The notes beneath the pieces were generated by a model that was not told the origin of the DNA, searched no databases, and saw only the letters and a list, made by a program, of their open reading frames with translations. Positions 4,921 through 60,203 of a stretch of DNA of 64,000 bases are shown one piece after another (the stretch's first letter is position 1; each line of letters begins with the position of its first letter). Position numbers and translations under genes: made by a program. This DNA comes from an uncultured Acidobacteriota bacterium (GTDB taxonomy: Bacteria; Acidobacteriota; Vicinamibacteria; Vicinamibacterales; UBA2999): the NCBI GenBank assembly GCA_963784065.1, contig CAWAQA010000005.1, forward strand, positions 383,530 through 447,529, given 5' to 3'.

Positions 4921-5023
4921 GAAAGCGGGCAGCCGGCAGCAAGCAGCTGGCAGAACGCAACAGGCATTCGTGACTTCCGGCGTCAGCCGGAAGAACTGCC
5001 GGCCTCCAGCTGCCGGCTGCCTG
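4921..5023. repeat. Inverted heptamer array, GGCAGCN family, with internal REP palindrome
   Basis: ggcagcc ggcagca agcagct ggcagaa (4928-4955) facing aactgcc ggcctcc agctgcc ggctgcc (4994-5021); cttccggcg-tc-agccggaag at 4974-4993. Confidence 0.8.
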
Positions 5024-6944: not shown

Positions 6945-7071
6945 CGAAGCCGGCAGCCGGCAGCCGACAGTGGAGGTCGCTCGACACGTAACGCTCGAGG
7001 GGTCGCGCTTGTCACCCGTTGCGTCGTGACAACATCGCCTGCCCACTGCCCGCTGCCAGCTGCCCGCTGAA
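6945..7071. repeat. Inverted heptamer array, GGCAGCN family
   Basis: cgaagcc ggcagcc ggcagcc gacagtg facing gcctgcc cactgcc cgctgcc agctgcc cgctgaa. Confidence 0.8.
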
Positions 7072-8975: not shown

Positions 8976-10001
8976 ATGCGCACCCTCTTTCGACCCTTCG
9001 TTGCCGCGGCGGCGTTGGCCGCCATCGCCGTGGTGTCCATCGACGCCCAGGAGACGTTCCGGTTCCGCAGCGGCGTCGAGCTGATCAACGTCACGGCGAC
9101 GGTGACCGACGAGGAGGGCCGCTTCGTGCCGGGCCTGCGGCAGGAGGACTTCACGGTCTACGAGGACGGCGAAGAACAGCAGGTCTCGCATTTCAGCAAC
9201 GAGCGCGTGCCGGTCAGCCTCGGCATCGCGCTCGACACCAGCGGCAGCATGACGCCGGAGAAGATGTCGGCCGCCCGCGCCGCTATCGATCGGTTCATCT
9301 ACGACCTGCTCGGCCCGGACGACGAGCTGTTCTTCATGCAGTTCGCGAACCGTCCCGACATGATCCAGCAGTGGACCAGCGACCGTCAGCGAATCAGCCG
9401 CGCGGTGGGCAGCGTCGGCTCGGGGGGCGGAACGGCGATGTACGACGCGATTGCCGACGCGATTCCCGTGGCGCAGTCGGGCAAGAACCGCAAGAAGGCG
9501 CTGCTGGTGATCTCGGACGGCAACGACACCAACAGCGGCACCTCCGTCAGCGAGCTTCGACAGATGATTCGCGAGAGCGAAGTGCTCGTCTATGCGCTCG
9601 GCGTCGAAGGCACCGAGACATCGGCGCGCCGGGGTCCGACGATTCAGCTCCCGCCGATGCCAATTCCCTTTCCCATCCCGGGGCGCCGGCCACGGTCGCG
9701 AATGCCACCGCCCATCGGCGGCGGGTCGGGCGGCGGTGTGTGGTCGCGCGGCGGCGACGAACGCGTCAACGCGCAGGCGCTGCGCCAGATCACCGACGAC
9801 AGCGGCGGGCGAACCGAGATCGTACGCGGATTCCGCGACCTCGACGGCGCGACCGCGCGCATCGCCGACGAGCTGAGCAAGCAGTACTACCTTGGCTACG
9901 CGAGCGAGGGGACCAAGGACGGGCTCTGGCATGCCATCCGCGTCGAGGTCAAGGACCGTCGTTTCACCGTGCGGGCGAGGCGGGGGTACGTCGCCTCGTA
10001 G
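8976..10001 (+). CDS. VWA domain protein (VWFA-related Acidobacterial type)
   Basis: Signal peptide, FRSGVELINV, MIDAS DTSGSM, GTAMYDA, LLVISDGND, QYYLGY...VRARRGY. Confidence 0.9.
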   Translation: MRTLFRPFVAAAALAAIAVVSIDAQETFRFRSGVELINVTATVTDEEGRFVPGLRQEDFTVYEDGEEQQVSHFSNERVPVSLGIALDTSGSMTPEKMSAARAAIDRFIYDLLGPDDELFFMQFANRPDMIQQWTSDRQRISRAVGSVGSGGGTAMYDAIADAIPVAQSGKNRKKALLVISDGNDTNSGTSVSELRQMIRESEVLVYALGVEGTETSARRGPTIQLPPMPIPFPIPGRRPRSRMPPPIGGGSGGGVWSRGGDERVNAQALRQITDDSGGRTEIVRGFRDLDGATARIADELSKQYYLGYASEGTKDGLWHAIRVEVKDRRFTVRARRGYVAS

Positions 10002-10003
10002 CC

Positions 10004-10128
10004 GGCAGCGGGCAGCCGGCAGCACGCAGGGAGCGTGTGCAAGGCGACCTGCCTAAGCCGTCGTCGCTTTCCTCGTGCTCCGCCGAACAACATCCGATGC
10101 CAGCGCCAGCAGCCCGCTGCCTGCGTGC
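10004..10128. repeat. Inverted heptamer array, GGCAGCN family
   Basis: ggcagcg ggcagcc ggcagca cgcaggg directly after the VWA stop; cgctgcc tgcgtgc on the right. Confidence 0.7.
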
Positions 10129-18089: not shown

Positions 18090-18156
18090 TCGTCTTCGGG
18101 CTGCAGCCGTCGGTGTCCGGTCTTCGGTCCGACCGGAGCCCGGAGACCGCAGACCA
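18090..18156. repeat. Inverted heptamer array, CGGTCTY family, between convergent pcnB and serC
   Basis: cggtgtc cggtctt cggtc facing gaccg gagcccg gagaccg cagacca. Confidence 0.7.
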
Positions 18157-19294: not shown

Positions 19295-20572
19295 CTACGA
19301 CTCGAACGACGGGCGACCGGTCCCGGCGCCTGAAGCCTGACGCCCGGAGCCGATATCTATTATCTGCAGGCTGAGGACGTCGGCGTTCCCGCGTTCGATC
19401 GCCGTCAGCAGCGACGCGGGCGGGTTTCCGTCGAGGCTGATGCGCGCGACGGCGGCGTCGGCGCCCTCGAAAATCACGTTCTCGGTTTCCTGGACGTTCA
19501 GGTTGCCGTTGCGGAGGTGCTCGAATACGTGCGCCAGCACGCCGGGACGATCGCGGTGGCGCACCACCAGCCGGTGCGTCGCCGGCGTCGTCTTCGCGAG
19601 GTTCACGACGTTCGGCGCCTGGCCGGTCTCCTTGTAGGCGCGAATCACGCGAACCGCTTCGTCGGCGATGGCGTCCTGCGCCTGTTCGGTTGAGGCGCCG
19701 ATGTGGTGGGTGCCATACACACCGGCGAGGTCGCCGATCGGATCGGCAAAACGCCCGGTCCCGCCCGCCGGCTCCTGCTCGAACACGTCCAGCGCGACGC
19801 GCAGCCCCCGGGTTCTGACGGCCTCGGCGAGCGCGCCGTGATCCACGATTTCGCCACGCGCGGTGTTCACCACGTACGACCCCGGCTTGAGCCGGTTGAA
19901 GATCCCCGCACCGACCAGGTGCTTCGTGTCTGGCGTCAGCGCGAGGTGCAGGCTGAGGACGTCACTGCGCGCGGCCACCTCTTCCGGCGACGGCAGCACG
20001 GTGACGTCGAGATCGCCAGGGATGGCGCGCACGGCCGCCTCACCGTCGCGAACGAAGCGCGGGCTCCAGACGACCACGTGCATGCCGAACGCGCGCGCCC
20101 GGCGCGCCACCTCCTGCCCGATGCTGCCGAACCCGATCAGCCCGAGGGTGCGGCCGTACAGGCCGCGCGCTTTCGAGTACTCGTTCTTGTTCCACCTGCC
20201 TGCGCGCAATTCCGCGACGTTGTCCGGAATACGCCGATCGAGCGCCAGGATCAGGCCGAACGTCAGCTCGGCCACCGCGATCGAGTTCTTGCCCGGACAG
20301 GTCGCAACGTAGATCCCGCGCCGCGAGGCGGCCGCCACGTCGATCGTGTTGACGCCGGCGCCGGCGCGGACGACGAGCGCCAGCCGCCCGGCGTCGAGCA
20401 TCGCCTCGCTGACCCGGGTCGAGCGGACCACGAGCACGTCGGCGCCGGTCGAGCCAATCGCCGCCGCCAGCGCGGCATCCACGAGGTCGGGCTCGTAGAT
20501 CACCTCGCAGCCGGCCGCCGCAAGGCCTTCGAGCCCAGACGTTTCGAACTTGTCCGCGACGAGTACTTTCAT
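19295..20572 (-). CDS. serA: D-3-phosphoglycerate dehydrogenase-like with C-terminal ACT domain
   Basis: RAGAGVNTID, GLIGFGSIG, VNTARG, LDVF, HHIGAST; HRDRPGVLA ACT; adjacent to serC. Confidence 0.82.
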   Translation of the reverse strand: MKVLVADKFETSGLEGLAAAGCEVIYEPDLVDAALAAAIGSTGADVLVVRSTRVSEAMLDAGRLALVVRAGAGVNTIDVAAASRRGIYVATCPGKNSIAVAELTFGLILALDRRIPDNVAELRAGRWNKNEYSKARGLYGRTLGLIGFGSIGQEVARRARAFGMHVVVWSPRFVRDGEAAVRAIPGDLDVTVLPSPEEVAARSDVLSLHLALTPDTKHLVGAGIFNRLKPGSYVVNTARGEIVDHGALAEAVRTRGLRVALDVFEQEPAGGTGRFADPIGDLAGVYGTHHIGASTEQAQDAIADEAVRVIRAYKETGQAPNVVNLAKTTPATHRLVVRHRDRPGVLAHVFEHLRNGNLNVQETENVIFEGADAAVARISLDGNPPASLLTAIERGNADVLSLQIIDIGSGRQASGAGTGRPSFES

Positions 20573-20687
20573 CGGGCTCCGGGCTTCGGGCTTCGGACTC
20601 CGGGCTTGCGGCTTCGGGCTCTGGGTCCTCGGGGCGCGACCGGTGCAGGTTCCGGCCCGGAGCCCGCAGCCTGAAGCGCGAAGCCTT
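20573..20687. repeat. Inverted heptamer array, CGGGCTY family (8 + 5 units)
   Basis: cgggctc cgggctt cgggctt cggactc cgggctt gcggctt cgggctc tgggtcc facing cggcccg gagcccg cagcctg aagcgcg aagcctt. Confidence 0.88.
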
Positions 20688-29043: not shown

Positions 29044-30286
29044 CCCTCGAGCTGTGGGCCCTGATCGCCGCGGCCGGAGTCGGCGCGGCGATCGTGGCCA
29101 TCCTCATCAGCCGCGGGCAACTGGCGGCGCTGCACGCCGATCTCGCGCAGACGCAGGAACAGCTCAGCGCGGCCCGGGCCGAGAACGCCGCTCTGGCGCG
29201 GGACAACAAATGGCTCGGCGAATCGGACCAGAAGCTGCGCGACACGTTCCAGGCCCTGGCCGCCGAGGCGCTCAAGGACAACCGCTCCTCGTTCCTCGAT
29301 CTCGCGAGGACCTCCTTCGAGCAGTATCAGCAGCCGATCTCGGAGACCCTCCGGCGCGTCGACGTCCGGCTCGGCGAGGCCGAGCGCGATCGCGTCGCCG
29401 CCTACTCGAAGCTCGCCGAACAGGTCGTGGCGCTCGGCTCGACGGCCAATACGCTGTCGCGGGCCCTTCACACCCCGTCCGTCCGGGGCCGCTGGGGAGA
29501 AATGCAGCTTCGACGCGTGGTCGAGATCGCGGGCATGCTCGAGCAGTGCGACTTCGACGAGCAGGCGGCGTTACACAGCGACAACGGCCGCCTGAGGCCG
29601 GACCTCATCGTGCACCTCCCCGGAAGAAAGCAGATCGTGGTCGACGCCAAGGCGCCGCTCGAGGCATTCCTCGACGCGCAGGAGACCCGGGACGACGACG
29701 CGCGTGCGTTGAGGCTGCAGGCGCATGCCCGACAGGTGCGCGACCACATGGACAAGCTCGGGAGCAAGGCCTACTGGGACCAGCTCGAATCCCCGGAGAT
29801 GGTCGTGCTGTTTCTCCCGGGGAAACACTCTTCAGTGCGGCGCTGCAGCACGACCTGACGCTCATCGAGCATGGCCTGCGGCAGAAGGTCCTGCTGGCGA
29901 GCCCGATCACGCTCATCGCCCTGCTCACCACCGTCGCTCACACATGGCGGCAGGAGGCGCTGACCGAGAACTACCGGGAGGTCGCGCAGCTCGGGAAGGA
30001 ATTCTACGAGCGGCTGGCGACGTTCATCGAGCATTTCGATGACGTACGCAAGAAGCTCGACGGCGCGGTGCAGGCCTACAACAAGGCGGCGGGCTCCTTC
30101 GAAACCCGAGTGCTGGTGAGCGCGCGCAGGCTCAAAGACATGGCGGTGACGACGGCCGGGGAACTGACGCCGCTGGAGCCGATCGACGCCGTCCCGCGCG
30201 TGCTGAAACAGGCCAATCTCATGGGGCTGCCTGAAACGGCGACCGTTGAGGAGGACGAGGGCGTCAACTCCCAACTCCCGATCTGA
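29040..30286 (+). CDS. rmuC: DNA recombination protein RmuC (frameshift near 29820)
   Basis: N-terminal TM, coiled coil, RGRWGEMQLRRVVE, RPDLIVHLPG, VVDAKAPL, LASPITLIALL. Confidence 0.9.
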
Positions 30287-30420
30287 GCCCCGCGCCAACG
30301 CCCAACCTGTCGTGCCTTCGTGCAACTCCCATCTGTCGTGCCTTTCGTAGAGGCCGACCTTCAGGTCGGCCTGTCGGGAGTGCGCGTGGAACGGAGTTGG
30401 GACTTGGGAGTTGGAAGCTT
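30265..30420. repeat. Inverted heptamer array, CAACTCC / GGAGTTG family, with internal GTAG REP
   Basis: caactcc caactcc (30265-30278) facing ggagttg ggacttg ggagttg (30393-30413); gtag-aggccgacct-tc-aggtcggcct at 30347-30372. Confidence 0.85.
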
Positions 30421-40575: not shown

Positions 40576-40670
40576 TCAGGCCTCAGGCCTCAGGCCTCAG
40601 GCCCCAGGGATCGCCAGGGATCCGCAGCCGGGAGGCCGCCCGGCCTTAGACCGGAGGCCCTGCAGCCTGT
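40576..40670. repeat. Heptamer array (TCAGGCC)4 with degenerate inverted partner
   Basis: Four perfect tcaggcc units at 40576-40603; ggcctta gaccgga ggccct at 40642-40661. Confidence 0.8.
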
Positions 40671-43794: not shown

Positions 43795-43858
43795 CTGCAC
43801 CCCCTGGCCGCCAGGACCAGGTTGGGGAGTGGGAGTTGATATTGCAACCGCCGTACGC

Positions 43859-44642
43859 ATGAGAACGCGTGCGTCCATCGACGGCCATCCGATTCATCCC
43901 ATGCTCATCCCTTACCCGTTTGCGTTCCTGACGGGCGGGTGGGGCTTTGGCGTGGCGGCGGCCATCACCGGCAACAAGGACCTGGCGACCGTCGCGCGCT
44001 ACCTCGTCCCCACCGGGGTGGCGGCCGGCCTTCTCGCCGCCGTCCCCGGCATCGTGGACTACGTCGAGAGCGTTCCGCCCGACAGCTCAGCCAAAGAACG
44101 GGCGCGCACGCACGGACTGCTCAACACCGCCGCGCTCGCGCTGTTCACGGCGGGATGGTGGATCAGCCGGCGGTCGCGCCGCACCGCCGCACCGTTGCTG
44201 CTGCAAGGACTGGGCACCGCGGCGATGTCCACCGCGGCGTGGATGGGCGGCGTCCTGGTGAACCGCAACCAGATCGGCGTGGACCACCGCTACGCGAACG
44301 CGGGCAAGTGGCAGGAGGAACGCCGAGCGCCGGCGAGCAGCCGCGCGCTCGCGTTTGCCGCGGCGCCGCTGGACGTGGACCAGATGAAGCTGGTTCACGT
44401 GGACGGCGCGCGCATTGCCGTCGGCGCGCACGGAGGAGGGCTACGCCGCCTTCAGCGATCGCTGCACGCACCGCGGCGGACCGCTCTCCGACGGCGTGCT
44501 GATCTGCGGGACCGTGCAGTGTCCGTGGCACGGCTCCCAGTTCGACGTGCACACAGGTGACGTGAAGTGCGGGCCGGCGGAGAAGCCGATCGAGACCTAC
44601 GACATCGACAAGGCGTCGGGCGAGATCAAGCGGCCGGCCTAG
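43859..44642 (+). CDS. DUF2231 membrane domain fused to a Rieske [2Fe-2S] domain (frameshift near 44420)
   Basis: GHPIHPMLIPYP, AVPGIVD, HGLLN, WMGG; CTHRGGPL and CPWHGSQFD Rieske motifs. Confidence 0.88.
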
Positions 44643-44644
44643 AG

Positions 44645-44680
44645 CAACTCCCAACCGCCAACTCAACGCCAACCCCAACC
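44645..44680. repeat. Left arm CAACTCC-family array flanking the four-helix-bundle gene
   Basis: caactcc caaccgc caactca acgc caacccc aacc. Confidence 0.8.
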
Positions 44681-44739
44681 GTCGGGCGGCTCGCGATCCG
44701 CCGTGTCTTGTCCGGCATGGTACGGGCACTGCTTGTCGT

Positions 44740-45119
44740 ATGGACGGCCACCACGACTGGCAGCCGAAGAAACCGTACGACCTTCGCGAGCGACTCTTCG
44801 AGTTCGGATGTCTCATCGTCCGCGTTGTGCAGTATCTGCAACTCGGGGACCGGTGGCATCCGCTCTTTCGTACCAGTTGTTGCGCTGCGGCACGTCGGCG
44901 GGCGCGAACTACGAGGAGGCGGACGACGGGTCGAGCGACCGCGATACGTTGGCGAAGAGGAAGATCGCGTTGCGGGAAGTGAAGGAGACGCGCTTTCGGT
45001 TGCGAATTCTACGACACTGCAACCTGCTGACGCCCGCGCAGGACCCGGTCATTGATGAAGCCGACGAACTGGTACGAATTCTCGCAACACTGATACACAG
45101 CAGTCCGGCCGGCCGCTGA
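44740..45119 (+). CDS. Four-helix-bundle protein (23S rRNA intervening-sequence protein / Avd-like family); frameshift near 44840
   Basis: YDLRERLFEFG...QLLRCGTSAGANYEEA...IALREVKETRFRL...EADELVRILA matches the family pattern QLxRSxTSIGANxxEA...ALxExxET. Confidence 0.85.
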
Positions 45120-45172
45120 AACCGCGGTGCGGGCTCCGGCCCGAACGCCAGCACACCGCTTCGAGGCTATCC

Positions 45173-45218
45173 GTTGGGAGTTGGCGCAGAGTGTAAGGTT
45201 GGGAATTGGAAGTTGAAC
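45173..45218. repeat. Right arm GTTGGGA-family array flanking the four-helix-bundle gene
   Basis: gttggga gttggcg ... gttggga attggaa gttgaac; gttgggagttg is the exact reverse complement of 44645-44655. Confidence 0.8.
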
Positions 45219-45228
45219 CTTCGAGAAC

Positions 45229-45970
45229 CTACTTCACGTGCCTGCCGCCATCGACGCGGATCGTTTCGCCGGTGATGAAGTCGTTGTCGATGAGCGCGAT
45301 GACGGCCTTGGCGATCTCGGGCTCACCGCCCCAGCGGCCGAGCGGGGTTGTGCGCTCGACGGCGGCGAACTGCTCGTCGGAGGTCCCGTCGGGCGCGACG
45401 ATCGGACCGGGCGCGATGGCGTTGACGAGAATCTGATCGGCCGCCAGCTCCAGCGCCAGGCCTTCGGTCAAGGCGACGACCGCCCCTTTCGCCACGTAGT
45501 AGGTCAGGAACCCTGGATAGCGCGGGCGGCCGCTGCGCGCGATCCAGTCGGAGAAGTTGATGATCCGGCCGCCGCGAAGCCGGCGCATATGCGGGACGGC
45601 GGCCCGGGCGCAGAGCCACGCCGCGCGCAGATCAACAGCCATCTGGTCTTCCCAGTCGTTGAGCGTGACCTCCTCGAAGGGCGTGTGACTGTAGATCGAC
45701 GCCATGTTCACGAGCACGTCGAGGCGGCCGAGCGCCGCCACCGTCTCGTCCACGACCCCCTCACAGGCATCGGGCTCCTTCAGGTCGGCTCGCAGCACTG
45801 TCAGCGCGCCGGCCGAGACCGCGTACCGTCTCGGCCACGTCCTCCGCCTCCGCCCGAGAGCGCCGATAGACCAGCGCGACGTCCATGCCCCTGCGCGCCA
45901 ACTCCGTCGCCACGACGGCGCCGATGCGTTTGCCGCCGGTGATGAGCGCAACGCGGCCAGCCAGCTCCAT
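45229..45970 (-). CDS. SDR family oxidoreductase (pteridine reductase-like); frameshifted
   Basis: ITGGKRIG, LVNMAS, YYVAK (YxxxK), VNAIAPG, ITGETIRVDGG. Confidence 0.88.
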
Positions 45971-47424: not shown

Positions 47425-47492
47425 CCACAGAGACGCAGAGGCACAGAGCCCACTCCCTGGGTTCTCTTCTCTGTGTCTCTGTGGCTCTGTGG
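47425..47492. repeat. Inverted octamer array, CACAGAGR / YCTCTGTG family
   Basis: ccacagagacgcagaggcacagag pairs 21/24 with ctctgtgtctctgtggctctgtgg. Confidence 0.85.
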
Positions 47493-59620: not shown

Positions 59621-59621
59621 G

Positions 59622-59770
59622 ATCAACTCCCGACGCCCAATCGAAACCTTGCGCCAGGACCCAACCTGTTGGCTTCGCTCGCAGCAGCCGGTGAATGTCA
59701 GAAAACGTGCGGCGCGAGCCGCGCGTCAGATTGGACGCGTGCAGGAGCGGATTCGGGGTCGGGTGTTGAT
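59622..59770. repeat. CAACTCC-family element with terminal inverted repeats filling a convergent gap
   Basis: atcaactcccgacgcccaatc (59622-59642) vs gattcggggtcgggtgttgat (59750-59770), 18/21 complementary. Confidence 0.72.
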
Positions 59771-60203
59771 CAGCGATAGATCCCGGCGACCCGCGGCTCG
59801 GCGCCCTTGTCGAAGGGCTCGAAGACGAGCCGGAAGCGGATGCCCGCCATGCTCGTACGCCCGCGTGACGCGCTGGCCGTGCGGCACGCGTTCGATCGAA
59901 GGCTCGGTGACCTCGGCCCGCGTGCCCGATTTGCGCGATCACGTCGGCCATCGTCTGGCCGACGCGAATGTCCTTGCCGTCGTTCAAGACCAGCATCGGG
60001 AGGGAGACGGCGCCTGGAGGAATCGATGCCGGCGGGGCGACGAAGGGAGCCGGGACCTCACGCGCGATGACGGGCGTCACGGCGCTTACCGTGCGGGCCT
60101 GGCGCATCGGCGAATCGATCCGAGCGCAACCACAGCGACAATCGCGGCGGCAGCCACGGCCCATTCGAGCGATAGCACCGAACCGGAACCGGGTTGCTTC
60201 CAT
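59770..60203 (-). CDS. Small hypothetical membrane-anchored protein (frameshifted)
   Basis: GGAGG-containing upstream region, hydrophobic LEWAVAAAAIVAVVALG, PPGAVSLPMLVLNDGKDIRVG; stop at 59770-59772. Confidence 0.5.

Follow-up and report, generated by a model that had tools for sequence, protein, structure and literature searches.

Open reading frames (ORFs) of the S23p/PF05635 family are known from intervening sequences in the 23S rRNA of Leptospira, Coxiella, Brucella and Xanthomonas (PMC4990558). In Coxiella, a 28-bp terminal stem closes the intervening sequence, 3-4 tandem GACAGAT heptamers lie 5′ of the S23p ORF, and RNase III cuts at the first of these repeats (PMC4990558). That the ORF might serve mobility was already suggested by Ralph and McClelland in 1993 (cited in PMC4990558). 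Here we describe a cassette with the same kind of gene at positions 44645-45218 of a 64,000-nucleotide stretch of DNA (the window, C5:383530-447529 of the genome under study, G000, which comprises 5.54 Mb in 10 contigs with 67% G+C and an estimated completeness of 81%). Like the rRNA intervening sequences, the cassette holds a PF05635 ORF in the loop of a terminal-inverted-repeat stem, with the sense strand in the host transcript. Unlike them, it lies outside rRNA, between two convergent protein genes, both of its arms are heptamer arrays, and geneless copies of these arrays are found across the genome. Other G numbers denote comparison genomes, L numbers loci, and X1 and X3 metagenome runs.

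In RAYT-REPIN systems, a domesticated Y1 transposase is flanked by the REP (repetitive extragenic palindromic) hairpins that it disperses. The cassette resembles these systems in its single gene between inverted repeat copies, in the amplification of geneless hairpins in the genome, in its lineage-specific repeat type and in the co-occurrence of gene and repeat. It differs in its protein, which is a small four-helix bundle (a PD-(D/E)XK fold in the parallel GxxExxY system described below) and not a Y1 (IS200/IS605-type) transposase, and in its repeats, which are tandem 7- or 8-base arrays as opposed to one fixed palindrome. With some reserve, we favor the reading that the locus is an intervening-sequence-type hairpin element outside rRNA, with protein and repeats functionally coupled as a RAYT is with its REPIN. 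It looks like one member of an apparently large, undescribed class of protein-coupled array hairpins.

Dispersed tandem heptamers are familiar from cyanobacteria as short tandemly repeated repetitive (STRR) sequences. The heptamer GGGAATC is dispersed in Xanthomonas, where 70-75 convergent heptamer pairs could fold into stem-loops, and GGGGA(T/C)T in Nostoc (PMC4692102), and arrays of TAACTGA occur in Beggiatoaceae (PMC4679880). The arrays discussed here are likewise intergenic tandem heptamers, and the arms of a Pseudoxanthomonas locus (L108) are of GGGAAT type. The PF05635 family is presumably related in its helical-bundle fold to Avd, the accessory protein of diversity-generating retroelements (DGRs). 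Unlike in those retroelements, no reverse transcriptase and no template or variable repeats stand at this locus, and the gene is enclosed by inverted arrays. Scattered PF05635-family genes have also been described inside cas operons (PMC3936711).

Anatomy of the cassette

The cassette is composed of two arms, a leader, a gene and a spacer, and lies within the 586 bases that separate the stop codon (TAG, 44640-44642) of a DUF2231-Rieske gene from the minus-strand stop codon (45229-45231) of an SDR gene. Two spacer bases precede the left arm and 10 bases follow the right arm before the SDR stop. From direct reading and the predicted folds, the left arm (44645-44680) is an imperfect array of CAACTCC-type heptamers (CAACTCC CAACCGC CAACTCA ... 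CCAACCCCAACC); the right arm (45173-45218), from direct reading, is an imperfect GGAGTTG/GTTGGGA-type array and the reverse complement of the left. Neither these nor the other arrays of this family are assigned a strand. The segments caactcccaac (44645-44655) and gttgggagttg (45173-45183) are exact reverse complements. Between the arms, all on the plus strand, are a 59-base leader running from the left arm to the start codon (44681-44739), the four-helix-bundle gene (44740-45119, ~126 aa when a frame break after 44839 is read through) and a 53-base spacer from its stop codon to the right arm (45120-45172). The leader contains a small GC hairpin at 44685-44702, the one weak terminator-like hairpin returned by a terminator scan of the locus. 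The coordinates of the stops, the arms and the 11-base inverse pair in the first-pass annotation all proved correct when the sequence was re-read, and we are close to certain of the anatomy as a gene between inverted heptamer arms.

The family of the gene, which the first-pass annotation had proposed to check against these two profiles, is confirmed above both curated cut-offs, with 56.8 bits for TIGR02436 (cut-off 24, E = 2.3e-15) and 40.4 bits for PF05635 (cut-off 33.8); no other family was found for the cassette protein. The profile match spans positions 26-107 of 109 and comes from the frame 44703-45119. The first quarter is in another frame, as the N-terminal part of the gene runs from the ATG at 44740 in a separate frame, with a 1-base break after 44839 in the window. 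The four-helix-bundle gene of ~125 aa described at first therefore stands as to its family, but as two frames in the window and not as an uninterrupted one. To check the frame, contigs of four public soil or rhizosphere metagenome runs were aligned to the stretch. In one X1 contig (44727-44898), an additional A follows 44839 and unites the two frames of the gene, and one X3 contig has one base fewer at 44423, which mends a split in the DUF2231-Rieske gene. Because these contigs restore both frames, the breaks at 44839 and 44423 are probably indel errors of the assembly, on the basis of single low-depth contigs, and a reading of the frame break as pseudogene decay was dropped. A further X1 contig (45168-45299) links the right arm to the SDR gene and shows 0 differences, and X1 may be the sample the genome came from. 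Assembly indels of this kind may also depress the completeness estimate of 81%. Among solved chains, a profile of the relatives' proteins matches only 2GSC (E = 3e-34) and 2RLD (E = 8.8e-21), and a pentamer was seen in structure 2GSC of the PF05635 family (PMC4990558).

The arms were compared with those of 1116 crude control genes of 80-200 aa, with the upstream flank of each gene aligned to the reverse complement of its downstream flank. The locus scores 29 in this alignment, where the controls have a median of 21, a 95th percentile of 27 and a 99th percentile of 29.85. Membership in a repeat family makes the stronger case against chance. In 5.54 Mb there are 27 copies of the 11-mer CAACTCCCAAC and 36 of its complement, where base composition gives an estimate of ~1 per strand, and allowing ≤1 mismatch the family forms 136 clusters genome-wide. 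In G000, 35 pairs have a left arm followed by a right arm within 700 nt; the locus pair alone has a gene-sized loop, the others each spanning ≤240 nt. The idea that the layout is due to chance or is an artefact of assembly draws on an arm alignment that reaches only the ~95th-99th percentile of the controls, and on the indel errors that the assembly carries. Against it are the 11-mer family, well above the composition estimate, the independent contig that connects right arm and SDR gene without a difference, and the recurrence of the layout in 57/80 loci from other phyla. The 11-mer enrichment and the control-gene comparisons rule against chance, and we give this explanation a negligible probability.

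In the predicted RNA fold of the 586-nt region (-255.5 kcal/mol, z = -3.7), the 5′ array pairs with the 3′ array, so that terminal inverted repeats form a stem around the ORF as in a 23S rRNA intervening sequence. The left and right arms still pair when the prediction is extended to 1411 nt so as to take in a third array of the family at 43821-43841, and pairing of the middle arm with this upstream array, considered as an alternative, was not preferred there. The predicted folds thus bear out the pairing of the arms around the ORF anticipated by the first-pass annotation.

The third array, one-sided and of GGAGTTG type (GGTTGGGGAGTGGGAGTTGAT, by direct reading), lies just 5′ of the DUF2231-Rieske gene. 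This upstream neighbor (43829-44642, plus strand) occupies two frames in the window, 43829-44560 and 44415-44642, and matches PF09990 (DUF2231, E = 8.8e-21) and PF00355 (Rieske, E = 1.8e-16) in profile searches. The convergent SDR gene downstream (45229-45951, minus strand) matches PF13561 (E = 1.8e-40). Two geneless hairpins of the CAACTCC/GGAGTTG family are also in the window, one at 30265-30417, seen by direct reading and in the pair listing, and a degenerate one at ~59621-59771 (GATCAACTCCCGACGCCCAATC ... GGATTCGGGGTCGGGTGTTGATC), seen by direct reading; both, like the one-sided array, were present on re-reading where the first-pass annotation had placed them. The loop of the first contains a nested REP-like palindrome, TTCGTAGAGGCCGACCTTCAGGTCGGCC (30345-30372), which recurs in G000 on C3 near 758960 and on C6 near 562720. 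Heptamer arrays of other units are scattered through the window at 20572-20633, 40576-40608, 7039-7069, 4924-4966, 10000-10029 and 18131-18155, with the units TCGGGCT x7, TCAGGCC x4.7, CTGCCCG, AGCAGGC, AGCCGGC and GACCGGA. A scan by sigma-70 consensus only found no sigma-70-like promoter in 44500-45400. No Rfam family reaches its gathering threshold anywhere in the 64-kb window, and at the locus, with E up to 1, only two chance microRNA matches appear.

These searches bear on a possible descent from a DGR, in which the protein would be an Avd-type accessory factor that has outlived its reverse transcriptase. The PF05635 family does include Avd-like proteins. The sole RVT_1 match in the genome (C5:1890-2526, split into two adjacent pieces) is ~380 kb from the cassette, consistent with the lack of reverse transcriptase and rRNA in the window noted at first; no template/variable repeat pair was seen at the locus, and all five copies of the gene in G000 share the hairpin layout instead. 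We consider such a remnant very improbable.

Array-flanked genes in this and other genomes

Five TIGR02436 matches are present in G000 and, by reading of their flanks, each is between inverted tandem arrays, with five different units. The unit is a GGGCTNC/GCCCGAA heptamer for the copy on C1, a 23-mer on C8, CAACTCC at 44645-45218, a degenerate GGGGTCAGGG type at C5:463220 and a 9-mer, GAAGTGGAA, on C4; the flank scores, in the same order, are 55, 210, 29, 24 and 59. Only 3/1116 controls reach a score of 40, and two of these three, infC and rplQ by our reading, have a complete hairpin on each side. Two further G000 genes, thioesterase-like (C6:429963-430480) and deformylase-like (C1:280877-281501), each lie between single inverted heptamer arrays, so array pairs can enclose ordinary genes. 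The units of four of the five family genes are dispersed in G000 (33 arrays of GCCCGAA, 26 of CAACTCC, 20 of GAAGTGGAA and 11 of the CAGGGAT type), and the 23-mer unit of the C8 copy forms 3 arrays only.

The units of relatives' genes, searched in all 31 genomes as three units in a row with ≤2 mismatches, are amplified mainly at home. AGTAGGC has 369 matches in its own genome, G004, and ≤12 elsewhere; GTTCGTG has 137 in G006 and ≤3 elsewhere; CGAATGG has 240 in G016, 57 and 17 in two genomes and 0 in the rest. At the locus and in these three relatives, as in RAYT-REPIN systems, the gene is therefore flanked by inverted copies of a repeat dispersed in its own genome. The expectation of one gene per hairpin family did not hold in G000, where several large families are geneless.

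The layout is general in the protein family. Among the 30 relatives and G000, the gene is present in 20/31 genomes and is patchy within one bacterial family. Of the relatives' 29 fetched loci, 22 have a flank score of at least 36, against a 99th percentile of 35 for 992 mismatched flank pairs. A wider set was drawn from a scan of one genome per species and consists of the 80 best matches to one profile, which is not a random sample of the family. Its loci span Acidobacteriota, Bacteroidota, Planctomycetota, Alpha-, Beta- and Gammaproteobacteria, Clostridia, Chloroflexota, candidate-phyla bacteria, one actinobacterium and one archaeon, and 45/76 loci with adequate flanks score at least 36 (99th percentile of mismatched pairs, 35.9). 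Reverse-complementary arrays called by Tandem Repeats Finder (TRF) stand on both flanks of 71/114 loci, with period 7 in 60, 14 in 5, 21 in 1, 9 in 2, 8 in 2 and 23 in 1, and the same two-flank test is passed by 28/1116 controls, 5 of them with period 7. By either test, 3/5 G000 copies, 24/29 relatives' loci and 57/80 wide loci have the layout. In this comparison with control genes, one that the first-pass annotation had suggested, four-helix-bundle genes carry inverted arrays far more often.

In the 60 period-7 loci, a greedy register alignment of the 5′-arm unit gives A in 51, G in 53, T or G in 53, two variable positions, T in 34 and C in 29, a consensus that is inflated by the procedure. 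The 5′ arm is richer in G than in C in 46/60. A telomere-like polarity of the arms was considered and dropped, as an inverted repeat has equal polarity on both strands and both polarities occur. In 68 wide loci, by naive ORF calls, the upstream neighbor is co-oriented with the gene in 57/67 and the downstream neighbor in 52/66.

Protein and unit vary together. Over the 60 period-7 loci, the more distant two proteins are, the more distant their units tend to be (r = 0.23, p = 0.0002, ≤1 of 5000 permutations; host relatedness is not controlled), and the closest protein pairs share units across phyla, such as L039 from a Bacteroidota metagenome-assembled genome (MAG) and L047 from a Betaproteobacteria MAG, both with AGGATT. 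Genomes with and without the gene also differ in their arrays. Matches to repeated AGT-N4 (AGTNNNNAGTNNNNAGTNNNNAGT) range from 0 to 886 in the 20 gene-positive genomes, with at least 4 in 19/20, and number 1, 0, 0, 0, 0, 1, 0, 0, 0, 0 and 0 in the 11 gene-negative relatives, the two groups being interleaved within one taxonomic family. In a phylum sample of 151 genomes, 86 have a PF05635-family gene. Period-7 arrays (the AGT-N4 pattern or its reverse, at least 3 per genome) are found in 72/86 gene-positive versus 7/65 gene-negative genomes (odds ratio 43, Fisher p = 3e-20, uncorrected for phylogeny). The sample includes three unpublished genomes, G052, G075 and G170, and the counts are 70/83 versus 7/65 without them. 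Together, the genome co-occurrence, the specificity of the unit and the covariation of protein and unit support the role that the first-pass annotation had tentatively proposed for the protein, as partner or cargo of the dispersed arrays. On these genome comparisons, the PF05635 protein and the repeat arrays are likely to be functionally coupled.

A second, unrelated protein shows a parallel arrangement. The search for gene-sized loops in G000 returned a GxxExxY gene inside inverted GGAGACGC 8-mers (TIGR04256, E = 3e-40; PF13366, PD-(D/E)XK fold), and a second GxxExxY copy has short CACGGAGG-type arms. The two genes, both TIGR04256, lie in inverted 8-mer or 9-mer arrays at C1:331849-332199 (L118) and C6:75616-75963 (L119). 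In relatives, 28 GxxExxY loci have arms of ~8-base units, CACNGAGN, CACGAAGN or CGCAGATG, and 15/28 score at least 36. Three CACNGAGN units in a row are found in 10/14 genomes with a GxxExxY gene versus 2/17 without, and in G005 the 19-base terminus of the sole GxxExxY cassette occurs 175 times versus 0 for a control. That two small proteins of unrelated families each go with a period and consensus of their own is an argument for treating protein and repeat as a pair.

Several further features of the repeats were observed. The outer motif GATCACGA(A/G)CC is common to many 8-mer hairpins and the C1 GxxExxY cassette. In the window, 47426-47492 is a compact 8-mer hairpin (CACAGAGA x2.9, then CTCTGTGG x3), whose array type is the one found beside GxxExxY genes at other sites of the genome. 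At C3:1333579-1333891 and C9:305399-305718 of G000, the loops of heptamer hairpins contain another palindromic repeat (GGGCCGGCTAAAGCCGGCCCCTACG type), so that repeat families nest in one another. At C3:724782-725308 and C10:46573-47042, whole CAACTCC hairpins stand in tandem, in units of ~115 and ~95 nt with 4-5 repeats.

Orthologous junctions and competing readings

Comparison of the Rieske-SDR junction in relatives, also proposed by the first-pass annotation, identified an empty counterpart. In G017, the DUF2231-Rieske protein is 68% identical, and the SDR and the peptidase and CHRD neighbors are shared as well; the convergent stops there are 2 nt apart, with no gene and no arms between them, and the array is also absent from the G017 spacer that matches the 43821-43841 region. 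The locus is thus not fixed without arms. Since arms and gene are missing together in G017, they are present or absent as a block, and the gene and arms at 44645-45218 very probably form one inserted unit. Synteny in G007 was set aside as uninformative because the SDR gene is upstream and co-oriented there. No target-site duplication is evident by eye at the Rieske-SDR locus or the G017 junction.

A second G000 cassette, at the junction C1:356130-356700 (L149-L157 comparison), lies between tryptophan 2,3-dioxygenase and kynureninase genes, named by reading of their translations. This junction is empty in G004, G017, G016, G007 and G021. In G012 it has one-sided heptamer arrays, and in G005 it has a geneless element with a ~270-nt loop whose 8-mer arms and termini are identical to those of the G005 GxxExxY cassette. 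The presence of different array elements implies that the junction has been hit independently by different elements, and insertion may be favored or tolerated at this position immediately after a stop codon.

These comparisons bear on the possibility that the cassette is now immobile and works for its host. The arms would then be an RNase III stem that releases or silences a small mRNA and separates the transcripts of the neighbors, and the protein would be a self-regulating host RNA-binding factor with the dispersed hairpins as its targets. Consistent with this, the arms pair in the predicted folds, the gene is co-oriented with neighbors, no promoter-like site was found in the scan described above, and in the Coxiella intervening sequence RNase III cuts within the heptamer stem (PMC4990558). 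A settled host function fits poorly, however, with a cassette whose presence varies among related genomes at two junctions, with units that are lineage-specific and amplified to hundreds of matches, and with a patchy distribution in one bacterial family. We regard this possibility as decidedly unlikely.

Several observations weigh against coupling of protein and repeats in a mobile element. The cassette at 44645-45218 itself misses both formal tests, with imperfect arms, its flank score of 29 and no matching TRF arrays, and its polarity is reversed, the C-rich arm coming first, as it does in the geneless hairpins of the CAACTCC family, versus the G-rich arm in most period-7 loci. To our knowledge, PF05635 proteins have no known activity, and no nuclease or recombinase fold has been recognised in the family. 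The largest hairpin families of G000, the CGGTCTN type (40 compact hairpins) and the CTGCCGG type (37), are without a resident gene in the 81%-complete assembly. Inverted arrays also bracket ordinary genes (deformylase-like, thioesterase-like, infC and rplQ, all named by reading), 7/65 gene-negative genomes have arrays, and 14/86 gene-positive genomes lack the AGT/TGA type. The wide set, as best matches to one profile, and the phylum co-occurrence, in which shared ancestry is uncorrected, count on the same side. Finally, no empty/filled polymorphism and no joint skipping 44643-45228 was found in the four metagenome runs, one of them an RNA run that consisted of contigs only and had none over the cassette, and the uncovered parts of the cassette are uninformative; four joints listed in that comparison are inside the flanking genes, on contigs of <95% likeness, and were disregarded.

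Some of these points suit an account in which the hairpins arise alone, by polymerase slippage and palindrome correction, and perhaps act as terminators or RNA stabilisers. The ORF would be a selfish passenger that inserts or survives in their loops, its protein unrelated to the arrays. Such an origin accommodates the large geneless families, the ordinary genes between arrays, the arrays of gene-negative genomes and the G012 junction, which has arrays and no gene, and slippage has been proposed for heptamer repeats (PMC4692102). It does not account for the G017 junction, which lacks the arms as well as the gene, or for a unit that follows protein similarity even across phyla, as in L039 and L047. 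Two unrelated cargo families go with two array periods (7 and 8), and arrays are near-absent from gene-negative genomes, which slippage alone does not predict. We therefore hold this account to be unlikely.

A proposed class of protein-coupled hairpin elements

Returning to the coupled element, the cassette would be a non-ribosomal form of the intervening-sequence element, with a PF05635 gene in the loop of a long heptamer-armed hairpin. The gene is probably transcribed by read-through from the co-oriented upstream host gene, because the cassette lies directly behind the stop of that gene and has no promoter-like site by the consensus scan. In the transcript, pairing of the arms would create a long double-stranded stem of the kind that RNase III acts on in rRNA intervening sequences; by this analogy, we see processing of the stem in the cassette transcript as evenly balanced between yes and no. 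The helical protein, presumably pentameric, would bind the heptamer arrays of its own element and their geneless copies, unit by unit, as RNA or DNA single strands or hairpins. The arrays would need the protein in order to spread or persist, much as REPINs depend on RAYT. Protein-dependent copying of the arrays is a tentative proposal, about which we lean slightly to the doubtful side.

At the same tentative level, PF05635 and GxxExxY proteins might be the element-encoded factors of an unrecognised class of mobile hairpins with 7- or 8-base array ends, each reading its own unit and driving geneless copying. The classical rRNA intervening sequences could then be copies that landed in 23S rRNA, and the excess heptamers, such as Xanthomonas GGGAATC and those of cyanobacteria, could be progeny of such elements.

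Four aspects seem to be new: the general location of PF05635 genes between inverted heptamer arrays outside rRNA, the specificity of the unit to its gene together with its amplification in the genome of that gene, the co-occurrence of arrays with the PF05635 gene family, and the parallel association of GxxExxY genes with 8-mer arrays. Beyond the description of Coxiella, no link of PF05635 or GxxExxY genes to flanking tandem arrays was found in the literature. The texts of PMC4692102 and PMC4679880 contain no link to the protein family (no S23, four helix or intervening), and their supplements, with gene lists outside the scope of this search, could hold such neighbors.

For annotation and assembly, contigs break at these arrays and repeat finders can confuse them with other arrays. 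With thousands of naturally occurring pairs in which protein and unit covary, genome sequences could yield a binding code, one that might make the recognition of short repeats programmable. The association makes three puzzles testable, namely the role of the intervening-sequence protein family, the origin of rRNA intervening sequences and the excess of tandem heptamers, and the layout of PF05635 genes may explain the source of the abundant heptamer repeats of bacteria.

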